Assembly: GCA_951406725.2 (NCBI GenBank)
Contig: OX597820.1
Span: 44,082,001-44,146,000 of the forward strand
Origin: Octopus vulgaris
Taxonomy: Eukaryota
Length of the DNA stretch: 64,000 nucleotides
Direction of reading: 5' to 3'
Shown: piece after piece, positions 12,046 to 58,619 of the stretch
Numbering within the stretch: position 1 is the stretch's first letter
Layout of the letters: each line of letters begins with the position of its first letter
Made by a program: the position numbers and the translations under genes
The notes under the pieces: model-generated
What the model was told of the DNA's origin: nothing
Database searches by the model: none
The model's input: only the letters and a program-made list of their open reading frames with translations

Positions 12046-12785
12046 CATAGCAAAAAAACATTCACTAAACTTGGCTTAATGGCTCATCCAACCTGATTAA
12101 TTAGCTGTTAGGCGAAACTTACAATCCTAGTCACAATGATGTATACTACACACAAACACATACACACACGCGCGCGAGCACATATATCACGTTATCGTCC
12201 AGACTATTTGGATGAGGTTATACGTCACTGATCAAAATGCGCTTCGCATTGTATTAGCCTTCGAATGATGCCACCTTGCTGACTAAGCAAATTGGCCCTA
12301 CTCCGTTCAGGGTTACCCATTTACAGACGAGAGAAAATCTTCTTTCGGCATGAAATTAAGGCGTTATTTACCTTGAGAGGACCTCGCTTATGGACTTATG
12401 GTGCAAAAAAGCACTCGCGCTTCTTTTGCTGTTAATCATATTTTTCTGGCTATTCGCGACATCGGTGCTTCAATAGATATGAATATTCTAAATATCGTTG
12501 ACAGGAGATTCAATTTTTTTGTTAAGGGACGTCTGTCACTACTATTATGTCATTGATGTATGCCTGAGGAGCACAAAGTAGGGCGAAATTACGTAATCTA
12601 GCAATTCCGATGACCGCCTGTCAACGATATAAATACGAGTGTTTTAAGCAACTTAGGTCCATCAGCGAAGTTCTTTCAAAGTAAATAACGCAATATTCAG
12701 TGTTTGAACACAACGCTCACGTTGCGTTGCTTATTGGTTAAATCAGTTTCTATTAATTAAGCACACACACACACATATATGTATG

Positions 12786-17267: not shown

Positions 17268-19343
17268 AAGCAAATTGAAAGCAGTGAAAAGTCCCGCCTG
17301 AAAATAAAACTGTTGGAAATTGAAAATTGTCTGCAACTCTCCCATGAGAAGGAAAGAGCAGACAAAGAAGCCTGGGCTATAGACAACATAAAAACTAACC
17401 CCAGAGCTTTCTACAGGTATGCCAAAGAAACAGCTACGGTGCACTGTAGGATAGGGCCACTCCTTGAAAAGGATGGCACACTCACAGGAAAACCAATGAG
17501 GGTAAGTGAAATACTGAATGAACAATTCAAGAGTGTTTTCACTCCACCCCTTGGGCATCTCCAAATCACCAATCCAACTGACTTTTTTACCACTGCAGAT
17601 ATAGAATCAGAGGCGGCGACGTTAAATTACATCGATATAAAGGAAGACGATGTAATAAAGGCTATAGATGAAATGAAAATAGACTCAGCTATTGGCCCCG
17701 ATGGATTCCCGGCAATCCTCCTAAAAGCATGTAAGAGAGTCCTAGCAAGACCACTGCAGTTCCTCTTTCAGAGCTTCCTTGCAGCGGGCAAACTTCCAAG
17801 AAAACTGAAGGAAGGTAAAATATGCCCTATTCATAAAGGAGGTAGCAGAGCGGAGGCCAAGAACTACAGACCTATCTCTCTGACCTCACATATCAGCAAG
17901 GTCATGGAACGAATAGTCAGAAGGAAACTAATCACCTTCCTTGAAGAAAATTACCTGCTGCCTGACACCCAACATGGTTTCCGACCAGGAAGAAGCTGCT
18001 TAACTCAGCTCCTGCAGCACTATGACTGGGTGCTGAAACAACTGCTCAACCACTCAAATGTGGAAGTCATATATCTCGACTTCGCAAAGGCCTTCGATAA
18101 AGTCGATCATGGAATGATATGTCACAAGCTGCGTGATCTTGGCATAGTTGGAAAACTAGGAGAATGGCTTCACGACTTTCTGAAGAATAGAAGTCAGGTG
18201 GTAGTAGCCAATGGGGCCACTTCCATTAGCACGCAAATAGTGAGCGGTGTTCCACAGGGCACTGTTTTGGGACCACTACTGTTCATAATGGCCCTCTCAG
18301 ACATGCCCTCAGCCACGCGGAGAGCCACGATCACAAGTTATGCAGATGATACAAAAGTTTCACAGGCAATACAGAACCCTGAAGACACTAGGCACCTGCA
18401 ATTTGAGCTGGACGAAATATACAAGTGGGCTGAAAAGAATAGCATGCAGTTCAATGCTGAAAAGTTTCAAGCTTTATACTATCAGCATGCAAAACTGAAT
18501 GCAATACCCAAGGAATACACTGGACCCGGAGGGATTGCAATCCCAGAGGCACAATCAGTGCGTGACCTGGGTATTCACATGAGTGATGACGCGACCTTTC
18601 ATGTACATGTTGCTAAACTGACAATGAAATGCAGACGGCTGGCTGGATGGATTCTTAGAACCTTTAGAACAAGAGAACAAGAAACCATGATGGTCCTCTG
18701 GAAGACACTTGTCCTAAGTCACTTTGACTATTGCTCTCAGCTATGGTCACCATCCAGTGTCAAGTTGATCACAGAACTTGAGGCGATCCAACGAAGCTAC
18801 ACGAAGAAGATAGCCTCTATGCAGAATGTAAGCTACTGGGAAAGACTCAAGAGATTAAAATTTTATTCCCTGGAGCGTAGGCGGGAAAGATATGCCATAA
18901 TATACATCTGGAAGATCCTGGAGGGAAGTGTCCTGAACTTTGGCATCGAGAGTTACGCAAACGCCAGAACTGGGCGCCACTGCGTGGTGCCTAGGACTCC
19001 AAACTTGCCATCAAGATGTAGGACAAGATTCTGTGATAGCCTGGGCTTCCGAGGCCCACAGCTCTTCAATATCCTCCCGATGAACCTGAGAGACCTGCAT
19101 GGGGTGGATACAGATGTCTTTAAAATGGAGCTGGATCTCTTCCTGTCAGGTGTCCCAGATGAACCAACTTCACGGCAGGAGGGGCAGATGAGGGCAGCTG
19201 CATCGAACTCTCTCATGCACCAAATAGCAGTTGCTAGAAAGCCTCCATGAAGTGAAACCAAGTAGCAACACCAAATGGCGGTGCCCCAGCATGGCCACAG
19301 CTCATAAGCTGAAACTGGAATCAATCAATCAATCAATCAATCA
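17268..19343 (+). mobile_element. 5'-truncated CR1-group non-LTR retrotransposon with 3' UTR and (TCAA)n tail
   Basis: Open RT frame. 3' end ggcggtgccccagcatggccacagctcataagctgaaactggaa followed by (tcaa)n. Flanked by microsatellites. Confidence 0.9.
17313..19250 (+). CDS. LINE ORF2 reverse transcriptase (C-terminal 645 aa; endonuclease missing)
   Basis: RT motifs GPDG, NYRPISLTS, QHGFRPGRSC, YLDFAKAFDKV, SGVPQGTVLGP, YADD, RDLG, plus the CR1-like C-terminus 'YWERLKRLKFYSLERRRER'. No stops. The TTG start is not a real start; the frame is open from ~17268. Confidence 0.9.
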   Translation: MEIENCLQLSHEKERADKEAWAIDNIKTNPRAFYRYAKETATVHCRIGPLLEKDGTLTGKPMRVSEILNEQFKSVFTPPLGHLQITNPTDFFTTADIESEAATLNYIDIKEDDVIKAIDEMKIDSAIGPDGFPAILLKACKRVLARPLQFLFQSFLAAGKLPRKLKEGKICPIHKGGSRAEAKNYRPISLTSHISKVMERIVRRKLITFLEENYLLPDTQHGFRPGRSCLTQLLQHYDWVLKQLLNHSNVEVIYLDFAKAFDKVDHGMICHKLRDLGIVGKLGEWLHDFLKNRSQVVVANGATSISTQIVSGVPQGTVLGPLLFIMALSDMPSATRRATITSYADDTKVSQAIQNPEDTRHLQFELDEIYKWAEKNSMQFNAEKFQALYYQHAKLNAIPKEYTGPGGIAIPEAQSVRDLGIHMSDDATFHVHVAKLTMKCRRLAGWILRTFRTREQETMMVLWKTLVLSHFDYCSQLWSPSSVKLITELEAIQRSYTKKIASMQNVSYWERLKRLKFYSLERRRERYAIIYIWKILEGSVLNFGIESYANARTGRHCVVPRTPNLPSRCRTRFCDSLGFRGPQLFNILPMNLRDLHGVDTDVFKMELDLFLSGVPDEPTSRQEGQMRAAASNSLMHQIAVARKPP

Positions 19344-22135
<2,792 letters not shown>

Positions 22136-22139
22136 ACAT

Positions 22140-22285
22140 AGGCGCAGGAGTGGGTGTGTGGTAAGTAGCTTGCTTACCAACCATATGATTCTGGGTTCAG
22201 TCCCACTGCGCGGCACCTTGGGAAAGTGTTTTCTACTATAGCCTAGTGAATGGACTTGGTTGACGGAAACTGAAAGAAGCTCCTC

Positions 22286-22362
<77 letters not shown>

Positions 22363-22596
22363 CGTATGTATGTATGTGTGTGTGTGTGTATGTCTTTGTT
22401 TGTTTCCCCTCCACCAACACCATCGCTTGACAACCGAATCTGGTGTGTTTACGTGCTTGTATGTTAGCGATTTGGCAAAACAGAGCGATAGAATAAGTAC
22501 TATTCTTACAAAAAATAAGATCTGTGGTCGATTTACTCGACTAAAGACGAAATCCAGCAGGATGGCAGTCAAATAACTGAAACAAGTAAAAGAATA
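22140..22596 (+). mobile_element. SINE family A
   Basis: Head ggcgcaggagtgggtgtgtggtaagtag (A box) and gggttcagtccc (B box), internal microsatellite, tail ctgaaacaagtaaaag. Confidence 0.85.
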
Positions 22597-22601
22597 GAAG
22601 A

Positions 22602-22661
<60 letters not shown>

Positions 22662-22667
<6 letters not shown>

Positions 22668-23528
22668 TGCGATGGTTAAATTGTCGCCATTTTACATTTT
22701 TTAATTTCATGCAAGTACATTGCTTGTTTTCGATTTTATCTGCTACACAGTATAGTGGGGTCAATTGGGCACTGTCTGCGAGAAAAATAGTGCCATGATA
22801 TAATTCACTCTGCCCGAAATTTTGGAAACGACATGCTGCACTGCTTGGCATTCTCGCCGGAAGCTCCAATACGAACATTTCATTGTGTTTGAGTGTGAAT
22901 CTGGGGATAGGTCAATCTGAGGACATGTATCCAGAGTGAAAAAATCTAACATACAGTCAACATCATTGATGTTTGGACTGACCACTAGTGATGGCGACGT
23001 TATGCCTCCATTCATCTCCCCCACACGACCTCACACTCAACAAGGAGGCCTACAACAAGTGCCTGGATGAGGTAGTGCTGCCCTGGGTGAAGTGGGTGGC
23101 TGCTGGAAGACCCTATGTCTGGCAACAAGACTCTGTACCATGCCACACAAGCAGGAGAACCCAGTCATGGCTGTCAAACAATTTCTGTGACTACATCACA
23201 CCTAACATCTGGCCACCTAACTCTCCAGACTGCAACCCATTTGATTACTATATGTGGGGCACAGTTGAGCGAGAGACCAACAAAAATTCTTGTAACGCTA
23301 GAGATGAACTGCGAGCAGGGATTATGGCAGCATTCACCAACTTAAACAAGAAGCCGTCCAGAAGAAATGCTGGAGATTTCTGGAGGCCGTAGTTGAAGCC
23401 AGTGGCGATTTTATTAATTAATTTACTCTTTAGTATTTCAAGATATTTTAATGTAATTTTGGTAAATGTATCTGTTAAAATGAGATGTCAGGTTATTTTC
23501 ATTTTTGCGTAATTTAGACGACACCCTG
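22662..23528 (+). mobile_element. Tc1/mariner DD37D (maT-like) transposon remnant
   Basis: ORF 22988-23392 'WQQDSVPCH...WPPNSPDCNPFDY' has 37 residues between the second and third Asp. Right end ...gacaccctg|ta. Confidence 0.8.
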
Positions 23529-23534
23529 TATATA

Positions 23535-23570
<36 letters not shown>

Positions 23571-23989
23571 TGTATGTATGTATGTATGTATGTATGTATG
23601 TATAAGCACGACATACCATATATAAAAAGGTGAAAATAAATCTAAAGTTGTTAAAGCTTTCACCTTGAAATTTTTAAACAGTATAAAATACAATTTAGCA
23701 TTATTTCACAGACGAAAATAAAAGAGAATATCTTGCCATGTTTCACGCTTTACGACCACTCATCAGAGGACACTGCCAATGAACAGATCGTGTAGTATTT
23801 ACTATTTAAATCAAACACTAGCTAGAATTTAGCTGTACTGGCTAGATGCATGTCTGCACAGAGCTTTAGAAACGAAAGTTTTCTTAGGTTTGTCTGGAAC
23901 AACTTATGCGGTACATAAACGTTTATCATTTATGCCTAAGTATAAAAATTATTCCTGTTTACAGTTGAATTGTGGATTTTTTTATTTTC

Positions 23990-24600
<611 letters not shown>

Positions 24601-25074
24601 CTTTATGTTTATATTTACACCTCAATTGATTTATTCTTTCCTTAATGGTGGTGTTGGAGTCGGTTTTGTGATCATTTTGGCCTTCTTGGTACGTCTGTTA
24701 CTTATACCCGCTGCACAATACCTCTGGATTTCTGTAAATAGTTCCTGGGTGTTTCTGAAATTAAACTGATTGGAAAGATTGTCTACAGCAGATTGTCATA
24801 ATCCAAGCTATTAATTAAGTGATGAATCTCTTGTACGTGACAATTTTGCCTCATTTTCTGGATCATATTTATTCGAATCTGGTTTAGGGTGGGGTCAATA
24901 AACCTAGCTTTTTGGTTTTTCATTTGTTTATTATGTTTGATAGACAAATTTACGTAACTTGTCAGTAAGTATATGCATCTGAATTAGCCTACCTTACTTT
25001 GAAGAAAGCTAAAGAGATATGGAGAGAAACAGTTAAAGTATTCAATTTACTTTGAAGGGAATATGTTAATATAT

Positions 25075-29782: not shown

Positions 29783-31245
<1,463 letters not shown>

Positions 31246-33757: not shown

Positions 33758-35425
33758 TATACATACATGCATGCATGCATATATGGGTGTGTGTATACGA
33801 GTGAATGGACAAAAGAAAGAAAGTGGCACTCAATACATTTTGTAGGATTCATATTATTTTATTAACGGTTTGAATCGATTTAAGTTTCGTCGCTATCTTC
33901 CATGAAGTTCTTCCATGATACCCATGCATATTGGCTTCCAAAACCAATTGCTTTGGTCACATGGTTCTTCTCTTCAATATGACAAATTACTTTGATTAAA
34001 ATATCACGTCTACTTTTTCTTTTTTATTCGTGGGGTATCCATCGGTGTTCCCGGCATCTTACGTATCGATTCGTCCCATTCCAAGATGGTCTTTCTCACC
34101 TCAACAACTTTTCTCACAATCCTATCCAATGTGAACAATATTCGCATAGCAGCACAAACCATGGTTCCAGCCAACTTGATACCATTATTTGGTTGTGGCC
34201 TTTCACCCTTTCAAACACCTCTAGCAATAATGTTAAAGATATATTCCTCTAGTGAATGTCGGGAAACTAAGACTAACTCTTCTGTGAACTTCCTAGCATA
34301 CTTTTCTATTTTATCTGATATTTTTAATAGCAAACGAAGCACTTCGAGTGGACATAAGAAACCGGACAGAAAGTCAAGTCAAACTGTAGTTGTCATTGAC
34401 AGTTAATTTCTATCTCAACTTGGTATCATTTCAATAACACCCTTAACATCAATCAAAGGTAGTAGATAGATAAGAATAAAGCGTTTAACTGCCTGTTATT
34501 TGACCGTTGGCATTAGCTTGCGTTCAATTTCAAACCTGAATTGTTTAACTAAGAGGTTCCCAACCATTTTTTACCGATTTTTACCTATAAATCAGCCAAT
34601 TTATAGGCTGATTGTAAGACGAAGTTATAGGTTAAAATATATAAGCTAAGCAATACACCAACCAATAAGCTTAAAGCTATAGGTTAAATTATATGCTATT
34701 AAAAATTATAATTTGATTTGTCCAATAAATATATACATTATAATAAATACTCTTAGGTTAAATTATATGCTTATCTATAGGTTGATTAAATTTTGCTAAG
34801 CCTAAGAATTTATGAGGCATTTATAAATAGATACAAAAATTATTGAGATTTTTATATCAAAAGTAATGTTTAAAAAAAGCTATTCATCAATAGGATAAAA
34901 TCTATAAGCAATAAGCTTACAAAATTTAAGCAAAACTATAAATTCATTGATTAATAGATCAATGCACAAAATTACGTTTTACTACTGGCTAAAAGTCTAT
35001 AATTCATAGATAATTTAAAAAATGAAGATTGATGTCAATACTAGAAAATTGTTCCCATTTTTATGGTATATATATATTATATATTTTATCCTACAGATAT
35101 TTGAATTGATGATTCTATATTTAATTGATATTCGGTGATTCCATTCTATGAGTAATAGGGGATTCAAACTCTATAGACGAAAATTATAGATTAAATTTTA
35201 TAGGTAAAACAAAGGCAGCTTCATTGGCTGAGTTATATACACAAACGCATAAATTAGAATCGAAATGCTAAACTTTAAGGTGATTTTAACTTTAAGGATA
35301 CCTTCATAGAACACCGAACACTGCGTTATAAGCCTTTAGGAGATCCTCTGATATAGGTGCTTGGTCTATTAAAGCATAGCTATAGATCATAGCTGACGAT
35401 TTTCGTCTGTCATAGGTGCCGGAAT

Positions 35426-35469
35426 TCCAATATCAAGTAATTTCGTTCTGTTGGAACTCATCAGTGGCA
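35426..35469 (-). ncRNA. Type-I hammerhead ribozyme motif
   Basis: Minus strand: UGCCA-CUGAUGA-GUUC caaca GAAC-GAAA-UUACUUGA-UA-UUGGA. Canonical core and perfect stem II; stem I partly mismatched. Confidence 0.6.
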
Positions 35470-35883
35470 AGCACCGGGTGCGGGCATGACTGTTAAACCT
35501 TGCTGCGACGATATATAGAATTGCAGCATATTTTCAGACGCTGACATCACAAATAGCCAGCAGATTTATTGAAAATTAATTATTAGCGACGGAAGCTGTA
35601 TTAATACCAAAAGATAATCATTATATCCAATTAAACATGGATGCCTTATTAGAACCCCGAATACTGCATTATTAGCCTTGAGAAATCCTCTCGTAAAGGA
35701 GTTAGGTGCATAAAAGCACACACATAGATCGTAGCAGATGAAATTTGTCCGTCACAGGCGCTGGAATTCCCATATCACGTGCGTTTTTTATATTAATACT
35801 GCTTCCATCACTGATAACTAATTTTTGATAAGCCTACTGGCTATTTGTGACATCTTATCCTGAAAAGGTTTTGGAATTCTATG

Positions 35884-36031
35884 GGCGTAGGAGTGGCTGT
35901 GTGGTAAGTAGCTTGCTTACGAACCACATGGTTCCGGGTTCAGTCCCACTGCGTCGCACCTTGGGCAAGTGTCTTCTACCAAAGGCTTGTGAGTGGATTT
36001 GGTAGACCGAAACTGAAAGAAGCCCGTCGTA

Positions 36032-36108
<77 letters not shown>

Positions 36109-36357
36109 TATGTATGTATGTATGTATGTATGTATGTATATGTTTGTGTGTCTGTGTTTGTCCCCCCAACATCGCTTGACAACCGATGCTGGTGTGTTTA
36201 CGTCCCCATAACTTAGCGGTTCGGCAAAAGAGACCGATAGAATAAGTACTAGGCTTACAAAGAATAAGTCCTGGGGTCGATTTGCTCGACTAAAGGCGGT
36301 GCTCCAGCATGGCCACATTCAAAGGACTGAAACAAATAAAAGAGTAAAGAGTAAGAG
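35884..36357 (+). mobile_element. SINE family A, full length
   Basis: A/B boxes, internal (TA)n(TATG)n, tail ggcggtgctccagcatggccacattcaaaggactgaaacaaataaaagag. Confidence 0.9.
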
Positions 36358-36401
36358 ATATCGTAGCAGTGAGATTTGACTGGCATGCGGTCAACTGGTG
36401 C

Positions 36402-36445
36402 TCCCACTGATGAGGTCCAATAAGACGAAATCATGTGATATGGGA
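36402..36445 (+). ncRNA. Type-I hammerhead ribozyme motif
   Basis: UCCCA-CUGAUGA-G-GUC caauaa GAC-GAAA-UCAUGUGA-UA-UGGGA. Perfect 5-bp stem I, canonical core, near-palindromic stem III. Confidence 0.65.
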
Positions 36446-36919
36446 AATCCTGTGGTCCATGACAGACGAATTTCATTTCCTACGACTTATGTGTGTACTT
36501 TCATTTTGGCTTATACAAAATATTCTTACGTAGCCTCATCGTTCATATAATGTTTTCTTTCTTGGTTAATAAATTCTCCTTATGTCCCGAAAAGTTTCAG
36601 ATTCGTTGATCGTCGTACGACAATATCTACTTCCAATTTTGCATAAATTTAATTTCTATCCTCCTCCGTTAAGGTTGCTTGTCCTTCTTGATTCTCCTCT
36701 ATTTTTTCCCAATTCTTATTTCTTCTATTAGCCCTGCTTTTCCCCAATTTTTTTTCCTGTATCTTCTCTGCCTCTTTCGACTCAATTCTCGCTGTCGTTC
36801 GCTATGATCACAGTCCACAGCAACGCACGAAAGACCGTTTCGATAACAAAATAATTTAAGACACCCGTATTGCTGATATATTGTTATGCACATTTAACGA
36901 AGGAAGTTAAGCATACAGT

Positions 36920-45394: not shown

Positions 45395-46395
45395 CGAAGT
45401 TCAGAGGATTTTCTAACTTCCGGAAAATTTGATCGAATACTTCCTGGAGAGTTCCGAGGTATTTAAACTTCCGGGGAATTTGGTCGAAAACTTCCTGGTA
45501 AGTTCCGAGGTTTTCTAACTAACGGGAAGTTTGGTCGAAAACTTCATGGAAATTTCGGAGGATTTTCCAACTTCCGGGAAATTTGGTCGCAAACTTCCTG
45601 GAAATTTCCGGGGATTTCCCATCTTCCGGAAAATATGGTCGCAAACTCCATGGAAAGTTTCCGGGATTTCCTAACTTCTAAAGTTTGGTCGAAACTTCCT
45701 GGAGAGTTCCGGGGATTTACCAACTTCCAGGAAATTTGGTCGAAACTTCATGGAAAGTTCCGGGTATTTCTCAACTTCCGGGTATTTTCGTCGAATGTTT
45801 GGTTTAAATTTTCCAGGAAATTTCCGGGGATTTCCCATCTTCCGGAAAATTTGGTCGAAAACTTCATGGAAAGTTCTGCTATTTCCCAACTCCCGGAAAA
45901 TTTGGTCGAAAACATTTTTGAATGTTCCAACAATTATCTAACAGCGTGGAACTTTCGTCGAAAACTTCTTTGAAAGTTCCGATGGATTCTGACTTACTTG
46001 AAATTTGGTCGAAACGATGCGACTTCCTGGGTATTTACGAGGATTTCACGGTAATTTCCGATTATAAGACTGCCTGGAAAATTCAGAAGATTTCCGAGGA
46101 TGGGATTTCATGGAGAATTTCGAGGATGAGTCTTCCTGCAAAATTCCGAGGATTTCCTGGTAAGTTCCAATGTTGAGATATTTCCTGGAAATTTCCGTGG
46201 ATGGGACTTCCAGGAAAATTCCGATGATTACATCGGAATTTTAGAGGATGAGACTTCCTGGAAAATTCCGATGGTTTCCTGGAAAGTTCCGAGGATGAGA
46301 GATTTCCTGGAAAGTGTTGTGGATGAGATAATTCCTGGAAAGTTCCGAGGATGGGACTTCCTTGAAAATTCCGAGGACTTGCTGGAAATTTCCGA
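45395..46395. repeat. Minisatellite: ~51-bp units (45395-46015) then related 21-28-bp units (46080-46395)
   Basis: Consensus approximately aacttccgggaaatttggtcgaaaacttcctggaaagttccgaggattttcc. ttggtcg recurs at ~45480, 45531, 45583, 45686, 45737. Confidence 0.9.
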
Positions 46396-46990
46396 GGCAA
46401 GTGAAATCAAAATCAAAATTCCTGACGTGGCCGATGACAGTACCACCTGTTTGGCACTCAATCCAGTGCAACGTTAGAAGCACATCTGAAATTGGGGTGT
46501 AACCGTCTCATTTATGGGTACCCCTCATTCATTGGACAATGAATTTTGCTTGCGAAGACCTATTGAGGCAAGTGTAAACAAATCAAAATCGCTGATGTTG
46601 CCGGTGACAGTACTGCCTGATTGGCACTCATGCTAGTGGAACGGTAAAAGCGCATCCAAGCATGATCATTGCCAGGGCCACGGACTTGCTCCCATGCCGG
46701 TGACACATGAAAAGTACCATTCGAGTATGGTCATTGCCAGCATTGTCTTACTGGCTCATGTTCTAGTGGCACGTAAAAACACCTTTTGAGCGTGGTTGTT
46801 GCCACCTGACTAGCCATCGTACCGGTGGCAAGTAAAAGCACTCACTACACTCTCAGAGTGGCTGACATTAGGAAGGGCATCCAGCTGTAGAAACTTTGCC
46901 AGATCAGATTGAACTTGGTGTAGCCTCTGGTTCACCAGTCCTCAATCAAACAGTCCAACCCATGCCAGCTTGGAAAGCGAACATAAGACA

Positions 46991-53546: not shown

Positions 53547-54236
53547 CGAGGGGCGTACAATAAGTAATGCCCCTGACCCACTTCCCATAGCAGTAGAGCA
53601 ACGAAACTTGGCACAGTTATTAGTCTTTTTCTACATAGGAATCACTCAGAGTTACGCATTTCTCCCATCGTTTGATGCGGCTCTGGAGACCGTTTTTGTA
53701 GAGGAACCCAGCTTGGTCCTCCAACCTCAACGTGACTTCAGAAACCAAGGCTGCATCATCTGGGAAACGCTTTCTTTTCAAAAACAACTTCATGATTGGG
53801 AAGAGGTGAAAATCAGAGGGTGCAAGGTCAGGAAAGTAGGGGGGATATGGAGGAGTTTATAGCCATACGCCTGTGCTTCTGATCTGGCGACAAGCGAGTT
53901 GTGGACCGGAGCGTTGTCCTGCAGGAGGAGGATGCCTTTGCTGATCTTGCCCCGCCTCTTGATTTTGATAACTTCTCTTAATTTCCTCAAAAGTGAAGCA
54001 TAATAGGCTCCTGCAATTGTGGTACCCTTTGCCAGGAAATCTCTCATCACTACTCCGTCCTGGTCCCAGAAGAGTGTGAGCATGACCTTGCCAGCGGAGG
54101 GCTGCACCCTTGCCTTCTTTGGAGGGGGTGAGTCACGGTGCTTCCACTGCATTGACTGGGCTTTGGTCTCTGGATCATAGTGATGGACCCAGGTTTCATC
54201 CTGTGTAATCAGTCTTTTGAAAAATTTTGACTCATC

Positions 54237-54240
<4 letters not shown>
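53547..54240 (-). mobile_element. Mariner-type transposon, 3' half
   Basis: TIR (ta)cgaggggcgtacaataagtaatgcc. ORF 53790-54245 'LITQDETWVHHYDPETKAQSMQWKH...LLQDNAPVH'. Confidence 0.9.
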
Positions 54241-54941
<701 letters not shown>

Positions 54942-57727: not shown

Positions 57728-58619
57728 CAGATAGATAGATATGCATCAGCTTAAAGACAAGAATCTACAGAAGATTAAATAAGTATCTGTTTATTTAATT
57801 ATTTATGACGACTGGAGATACACACATACTCACACACAAACACATATATGTACAAGTACATATATAAATATGTATATATAATTGCATTTATATATATATA
57901 TGTATGTGTGTATGTATCTATGCATAGAAAGACAACTTCTCTTCAATGATTTAAATTTAAACATGGAAATTTTATTTTAGTCTAATGCAATTATTGATTG
58001 TTTTATTAATGCATACAGTGAACACCATTTTCTTTTTAGAACATTTAATGTATACATTTTTTGGTTGTTTACTTTTTTTCAATAAAACGTTATATGTGCG
58101 TTAAAGATAGAAATAGATAAAATCTTATGGTAATAATTCTTTGTCGGGTACCTATGTTTGATTATGGTAGTATCTGGGTTTCAGTTATTACAGTTCATTT
58201 TTTGAAAATTTAACTCATGTCCATTGTCCAAAGATCTTTCGTCACACATCTGTGACCTCTTCAGCGACACTTTTCGTTTTCGTGTGTGCTCTTGCTCCAC
58301 TTATTCCCTTCAGTGGATTAAGTGGAGCAAGAGCACACAAGACCCCTTTGAATGAACAGCACATGAAATTAATGACTCCACATTATCCATCTGTAATAAC
58401 AAAATATGAACTCCTACCAGAATTTACATACCATAGACAAGAAGCCTTTTTACCCATTCTACATAGCACTTTCCTTGGATAATGGAATTACAACTGTAAC
58501 ATCCAACATATATTTTAATTTTATTCTCTTTATTCCATCTATACTTCCTGTATCTCTCCCTTTTCAAAATAACTTCTTTTATTGAACTCTACTATTTCCT
58601 TCTATTTAACTCTCATATC

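Follow-up and report, generated by a model that had tools for sequence, protein, structure and literature searches.

A dispersed 342-nt hammerhead repeat in Octopus vulgaris, probably an extinct retrozyme moved by Penelope-like elements

Animal non-LTR retrozymes are already known from a mollusc, with mussel repeats of ~350-390 bp standing beside axolotl repeats of 330/350 bp in the available parts of PMC7229834. Those of vertebrates have been argued to be non-autonomous derivatives of Penelope-like elements (PLEs) from co-occurrence and pLTR homology, in sections of a study (10.64898/2026.07.22.740005) that also gives two consecutive complete hammerheads as the criterion for an 'active' retrozyme. 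Insertions of PLEs carry marks of their own. Passages of PMC8557442 list 5' truncation, partial tandems, a further copy at the 5' end that is inverted and itself 5'-truncated, a tail of 30-40 bp that is often confined to one end, and microsatellites as targets. Excerpts of PMC4209133 link a palindromic helix III to dimeric cleavage.

Here we describe a retrozyme-like locus in a 64,000-nucleotide stretch of the Octopus vulgaris genome, which we call the window. We put a probability of roughly 0.8 on the reading that a dispersed, non-coding 342-nt repeat, likely a non-LTR retrozyme now extinct, was mobilized by the RT/GIY-YIG enzyme of PLEs and left the locus as one of its old insertions. Taken by itself the locus is ordinary and decayed; it is the insertion record of the whole family that is of interest. 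Its features are collected in Table 1.

Table 1. Positions of the repeat, its hammerheads and related insertions (window coordinates unless a locus is named)
Feature	Position	Strand	Details and basis
3' partial unit	35296..35430	-	monomer 1-134; 73% identity to full unit; nhmmer
Full 342-nt unit, cut site to cut site	35431..35772	-	non-coding
Type I hammerhead	35419..35477	-	Rfam HH9, 23 bits (below gathering score); sequence
Upstream hammerhead remnant	35773..35784	-	only 3' side of helix III; core absent
Inverted 5'-truncated arm, part 1	35785..35882	+	monomer 161-258; alignment, nhmmer
SINE-like insert, high-copy, outside the element	35883..36356	+	depth; absent from run X11 allele
Inverted arm, part 2	36357..36503	+	monomer 259-342, then 1-63; alignment, nhmmer
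Type I hammerhead of inverted arm	36402..36445	+	Rfam HH9, 21.9 bits (below gathering score); sequence
Second, more diverged family insertion	12361..12734	+	profile match; short head-to-head inverted arm; broken hammerhead
Diverged sister family	L204:1498-1567; also L211-L221, L225, L229	- (L204)	found through Rfam

Pairwise alignment on the minus strand returned a unit period of 342 nt and an upstream equivalent of the cut site at 35773/35772, in agreement with the first-pass annotation of this DNA. The tandem units are identical at 132 of 181 aligned columns (73%), and the full unit diverges by 14% from the family column majority; beyond the 3' partial unit, the nhmmer profile reaches weakly to 35263. 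The annotation had described a ribozyme-to-ribozyme monomer, and one full ribozyme is indeed in place, but the upstream end is only a remnant without a core, so that the unit spans full ribozyme to remnant. The inverted copy that it described is also present, identical to the unit at 178 of 244 positions with the SINE excluded (73%), but begins at 35785 and not at 35791; the 5' truncation point and the head-to-head inversion junction both fall at 35784/35785. No stop-to-stop ORF of at least 90 aa lies within the repeat arms, which upholds the description of the element as lacking an ORF, and the three listed ORFs (35879-36318) overlie the SINE. By eye, no target duplication was evident at this insertion.

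Read depth over the SINE-like insert, which contains a microsatellite (36030-36141), is 10^7 versus ~50 in the unique flank. The locus is common to other organisms besides the source genome, and in a contig from a related organism (run X11), which is ~6-10% diverged at the locus, 35716-35880 continues directly at 36358-36545 and spans the inversion junction. Since this contig lacks the SINE, the SINE is younger than the retrozyme-like insertion that it splits, as had been proposed; since it crosses the junction, the inversion is real and no assembly artefact. At the second insertion in the window, a (CA)n run follows soon after the 3' end.

Elsewhere in the window, a Pfam scan of 36 of the 151 ORFs gave one weak GPCR match and otherwise only remnants of RT, transposase and HTH domains. 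A 660-aa open frame at 17268-19250 (+) is a LINE-type reverse transcriptase remnant (RVT_1, E 4e-31), and Tc1/mariner-type transposase remnants were matched by Pfam at 53790-54245 (-), 22982-23392 (+) and 30038-30523 (+). TTCC/GGAA-rich units of 51-52 bp and of 26-28 bp form arrays at 45397-46397. Hammerhead-core-like motifs at 58264 (-), 58624 (+) and 23766 (-) are unrelated to the 342-nt family by profile, and are probably the ends of other PLE-type repeats.

Both hammerheads that had been placed at the locus have an intact core and match Rfam Hammerhead_HH9, at scores that lie below its gathering score of 52. On the minus strand, where the predicted cut at 35431/35430 was likewise recovered, CUGAUGA (35464-35458) and GAAA (35444-35441) are accompanied by a 4-bp helix II, a decayed palindromic helix III, an AUA triplet and a helix I in which 2 of 6 pairs are broken. 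The plus-strand ribozyme, whose intact core lies at 36407, is predicted to cut at 36440/36441 and has a 5-bp helix I and a helix II that is shifted in register. The MFE structures of both differ from the hammerhead fold; more generally, MFE folds of five ribozyme copies gave no clear gain over shuffles (z -1.86 to +1.69), and the monomer folded no better than its shuffles (z 0.77). Two consecutive complete hammerheads are not found here, as the catalytic core of the upstream ribozyme was lost at the inversion, and the inverted arm is shorter than one unit and has a single ribozyme. With one full ribozyme per strand the locus cannot excise a monomer, and from its sequence unit-length RNA is predicted from neither strand.

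The unit belongs to a large family. In its own 2.8-Gb genome the monomer query drew 1415 first-look candidates; the best 40 candidates were scored in each genome search, and the results are lower bounds. Eighty arbitrary 10-kb stretches (800 kb) held 7 family insertions, of which one is weak; the family profile matched this random 800 kb 18 times and the reversed control 0 times. The estimated copy number is ~21,000-25,000 (95% range 7,700-50,000). We mapped the monomer profile on 55 distinct loci, which remained of 66 fetched after 11 duplicates were removed. Unit junctions were crossed by most of the resulting 75 chains: none in 22, one in 46, two in 6 and three in 1, the last including an internal restart, so that the cut junction was crossed in 53 and at least two junctions in 7. 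The copies are thus dispersed partial tandems of 1-2 units, and those that extend upstream of one full unit always have another unit there. Upstream of the units no shared non-repeat flank was found, only common SINEs and simple repeats, and among the best 40 scored candidates of each genome search no array was longer than ~2.5 units. At the cut site (positions 1-20) 5' ends are over-represented, with 17 of the 75 chains, which we discounted, as the first query itself began there.

All of these copies appear old. Across 113 aligned pieces, divergence from the column majority averaged 15% with a minimum of 9%, and since no copy is less than 9% diverged, the family looks extinct. The best non-self matches of two long queries, among the best 40 scored for each, were 78-80% identical. 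A degenerate pattern for the intact ribozyme had one exact match in the genome, and a genome search with the pattern of the commonest ribozyme subtype found no perfect match and 6 dispersed one-mismatch matches. Judged from these sequence comparisons, the assembly looks to be without a young cohort of the family, and the lower-bound searches agree. The suggestion that the family now yields a ~342-nt circRNA is therefore not supported: its copies are old and dispersed, the arrays found reach at most ~2.5 units and the locus cannot excise a monomer.

The ribozyme left a clearer trace in the family than at the locus. The CUGANGA and GAAA core is retained in 31 of 68 pieces, so that other copies with a conserved core, whose lack the annotation had named as grounds for rejection, do exist in a multi-copy family. 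The ribozyme is of the canonical 6-bp/4-bp form and not of the minimal PLE type, helix III is a 10-nt palindrome, and the commonest subtype has a U-U at the base of helix II (in 23 classed pieces, U-U and then a U-A pair). In 58 aligned copies, helix cells were paired at 82%, versus 77% in shuffles and 30-46% in slid controls. Double-sided changes in the same copies numbered 59 versus 22.5 when shuffled (0 of 500 shuffles). Most of this covariation comes from two changes at the level of subfamilies, one in helix I from U-A to C-G (17 copies) and one in helix II from U-A to G-C (12 copies); as markers of subfamilies they count as few events, and related sequences can beat a shuffle without structure. 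This pattern argues that the type I hammerhead was under selection while the family spread.

A strict generic type I scan, with 4 sites in 800 kb versus 0 in the reversed control, missed both window ribozymes and was excluded from the counts. Over the whole genome Rfam HH9 produced 4 matches, all of them under the cut-off and outside the main family; one led to a diverged sister family (Table 1). The hammerhead of this sister family is well formed, with an AUC triplet, the same helix III palindrome as the main family and compensated helices of its own, and its 3' end is sharp at the site corresponding to that of the main family, often before simple repeats. The sister family is also old, with copies 77-81% identical to one another.

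We then considered how the copies are built at their ends, and found all of the insertion marks of PLEs in the family: 5' truncation, partial tandems, 5' inverted copies, a tail that may be present or absent, and microsatellites. Among the 27 insertions not chosen on their tail, 20 had 3' ends at 140-210 nt past the cut, 13 of them at 190-210 and none at 211-335; over all chains the 3' ends form two groups, ~144-175 and ~192-209, which lie ~40 nt apart. Counts over 61 insertions, which leave out L066, L075 and the weak L141, gave 16 head-to-head (5'-to-5') junctions and 0 tail-to-tail, and 13 further loci added 4 head-to-head junctions. A hand count of these 20 head-to-head insertions showed one arm ending at 192-206 and the other at or below 172 in 8, and both arms ending at or above 190 in 2. 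The inverted arm in the window is the usual Penelope-type 5' inversion of one insertion, present in 16 of the 61, and nothing special to the locus. In 24 of the 61 insertions the 3' end has a microsatellite no more than 45 nt away (background 12.4%); the 5' end has one at that distance in 5 of the 61. The clustering of 3' ends, the 5'-to-5' arms and the microsatellites at 3' ends all back the Penelope-like mobilization that had been put forward.

The same insertions carry information on the template. A 3' end in mid-unit, combined with run-through of the cut, indicates a circular, multimeric or uncleaved RNA and not a cleaved linear monomer. Units within an insertion share derived bases (0.019 versus 0.012 in matched controls), as do inverted units (0.024 versus 0.013 in controls; 0 of 1000 permutations), a signal that gene conversion between neighboring copies could also raise; the overall difference within an insertion is not lower (0.22 versus 0.225). 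By eye, unlike ribozyme subtypes occur together in 2 of 6 tandem two-ribozyme insertions (L008, L029), and a single monomer circle therefore cannot explain all copies. We infer that the templates were at least partly mixed multimers, or that the enzyme switched templates.

A search of the genome for GIY-YIG gave 6136 candidates and 148 scored matches, with repeated 781-aa frames among them; this 781-aa ORF has RT, GIY-YIG and a CX4CX2C linker and is followed by (TA)n. The monomer was absent from the 3' regions of 50 PLE loci (30 + 20) taken from the top GIY-YIG matches of the 6136 candidates. We also ran seven Neptune/Nematis-type proteins as tblastn queries. The window gave no coding remnant, L066 was the one family locus that did, and 26 further loci had none; the same queries also matched two loci fetched as PLE loci. 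The element itself contains no RT/GIY-YIG ORF of the kind that would make it an autonomous EN+ PLE. As none of these 50 PLE loci shares sequence with the monomer in its 3' region, we infer the partner from the insertion scars. At L066:1495-1850 and L075:3066-3200 (-), the latter a weak match, a truncated Neptune/Nematis-type PLE is immediately preceded on its 5' side by a monomer fragment in the same orientation; these junctions may reflect template switching or a shared target site. We considered and rejected a chimeric PLE-monomer family, given that the L066 junction was absent in 19 other loci examined from the top 40 matches.

The genome contains further PLEs of note. A young Penelope-like family at L097:1245-3587 (+) has an intact 781-aa RT + GIY-YIG ORF and an upstream open frame; its 3' region contains ~90-bp repeats, and a pattern search found no canonical hammerhead there. 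Another PLE family (L182-L200) has, 3' of the endonuclease, a minimal hammerhead-like motif with a palindromic helix III, whose core UUGAAAA is the U3-A8 variant described in a portion of PMC4209133. At L152 and L070, again 3' of the endonuclease, a PLE hammerhead-like motif has a U-U at the base of helix II, which recalls the commonest subtype of the 342-nt repeat.

These observations bear on other ways to read the family. The repeat might be the pLTR or 3' UTR of an autonomous PLE and its copies 5'-truncated debris, in line with every insertion mark being a PLE mark, with the hammerheads that PLEs bear in their pLTRs (PMC4209133, in part) and with the monomer fragments that adjoin a truncated PLE in L066 and L075. 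We regard this as unlikely: those fragments sit 5' of the PLE piece and not 3', a full unit is preceded by another unit without a shared non-repeat flank, the seven tblastn queries found a coding remnant at no family locus but L066, and the ribozyme is canonical, with its 6-bp and 4-bp helices, and not of the minimal PLE type. It is more doubtful still that the family lives on as young tandem arrays making circular RNA, as in mussel, coral and axolotl. Arrays do collapse in assemblies, which makes the searches lower bounds, and nearly half of the pieces (31/68) retain CUGANGA and GAAA, but the best non-self matches of the two long queries reach only 78-80%, a single exact match to the intact-ribozyme pattern exists, the commonest subtype has 0 perfect and 6 dispersed one-mismatch matches, and all 113 pieces are at least 9% diverged.

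Two further readings seem very improbable to us. One takes the repeat for a satellite or MITE-like DNA repeat with inverted arms that are transposon ends or recombination products; inverted arms do exist, and local tandem amplification is discussed in sections of 10.64898/2026.07.22.740005, but the arms abut at variable points, enclose nothing and are absent in 45 of 61 insertions, while 5' ends are scattered and 3' ends clustered, as reverse transcription predicts. This DNA-level reading is largely refuted already, and with it the concern, raised at first pass, that the repeats belong to the TIRs of a DNA transposon, as no fixed TIRs enclose a body in the 61 insertions. The other, to which we give equally little credence, is that the host has retained this copy for a ribozyme or hairpin function, given that the cores of both hammerheads are intact, that the copy is among the best matches to an independent query and that the locus is common to other organisms. 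Against run X11, however, 42 of 655 positions differ in the element (6.4%) and 64 of 773 in the flanks (8.3%), which amounts to no clear constraint; moreover, helix I is broken, the SINE was tolerated, the monomer fold scores z 0.77, and about half of the family copies retain the core anyway.

The reading that we prefer is a retrozyme family moved by PLEs. Transcripts of tandem source copies would have been cleaved by the hammerhead, probably in dimeric form via the palindromic helix III, and the RNA would have remained as circles or multimers. Simple-repeat DNA may then have been nicked by a Neptune/Nematis-type PLE enzyme, with priming ~160 nt past the cut site (~200 with the tail) and copying through the cut junction that would usually stop after 1 to 1.5 units, often with the addition of an inverted second arm. 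The copy at the locus would afterwards have decayed and received the SINE. We lean, with less assurance than for the origin of the locus, toward the more specific claim that the fossil insertions, which number in the tens of thousands, record priming by a Neptune/Nematis-type PLE at a fixed site ~160 nt past the cut, kept in both sister families, and then read-through of circular or multimeric RNA of mixed subtypes. The family is likely an extinct parasite of Penelope-like elements, and the locus likely makes no circular RNA today. The earlier argument for a link between PLEs and retrozymes was one of co-occurrence and pLTR homology, to which this family adds the scars of many independent copies. 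If the proposal is true, it would provide direct insertion-site evidence for PLE mobilization of animal retrozymes without shared pLTR sequence, and would point to the RNA segment recognized by the PLE enzyme, likely a short one on the 3' side.

The family is called new here from the literature alone, and repeat libraries or supplements may list it, possibly as unknown or Penelope. We found no description of it in the accessible literature on retrozymes or hammerheads in octopus or cephalopods, or in that on non-LTR retrozymes with an inverted insertion; the available text of the cephalopod repeat papers PMC13282606 and PMC8967140 does not mention ribozymes, and inverted arms and tails are not discussed in the text of 10.64898/2026.07.22.740005 and PMC7229834 covered by a word search.

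Set beside known systems, the repeat has a short, low-GC, non-coding unit (342 nt, in a class of ~150-450 bp) with one type I hammerhead per unit, head-to-tail tandem units and many copies in the genome, and the family lacks long terminal repeats of its own. The retrozyme-like family proposed at first pass is thus borne out by copy number, by a covarying type I hammerhead and by a retrozyme-sized unit, and by its unit size, ribozyme and tandem form would fit among the animal non-LTR retrozymes as a member both new and fossil. As far as the excerpts of PMC7229834 go, it shares with these a non-coding, low-GC unit of similar size, a canonical type I hammerhead with palindromic helix III and several ribozyme subtypes, including one whose helix II has a U-U mismatch at its base, as does that of axolotl HHR_Amex2; unlike them, it consists of dispersed 1-2-unit insertions, with no long arrays or young copies found, and whereas they have circular RNA, it is known from DNA alone. 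With the vertebrate retrozymes, as covered in parts of 10.64898/2026.07.22.740005, it has in common PLE co-occurrence, monomer- and dimer-like dispersed copies and a proposed PLE mobilization, but here no pLTR homology was found and insertion anatomy forms the link. Like EN+ Neptune/Nematis-type PLEs (PMC8557442 and PMC4209133, each in part), it forms partial tandems, bears at its 5' end a second copy that is inverted and 5'-truncated, has microsatellite targets, and has a 3' end with or without a ~40-nt tail and a hammerhead near that end; in contrast to them, it has no ORF, a 342-nt unit and a canonical rather than minimal hammerhead. Finally, the non-autonomous Chlamys PLEs, such as MRC1, resemble it in being non-coding, with pLTR-like partial tandems and head-to-tail copies, but MRC1, according to passages of PMC8557442, belongs to an algal and mostly ribozyme-free clade, is similar at its 3' end to an autonomous partner and is active.
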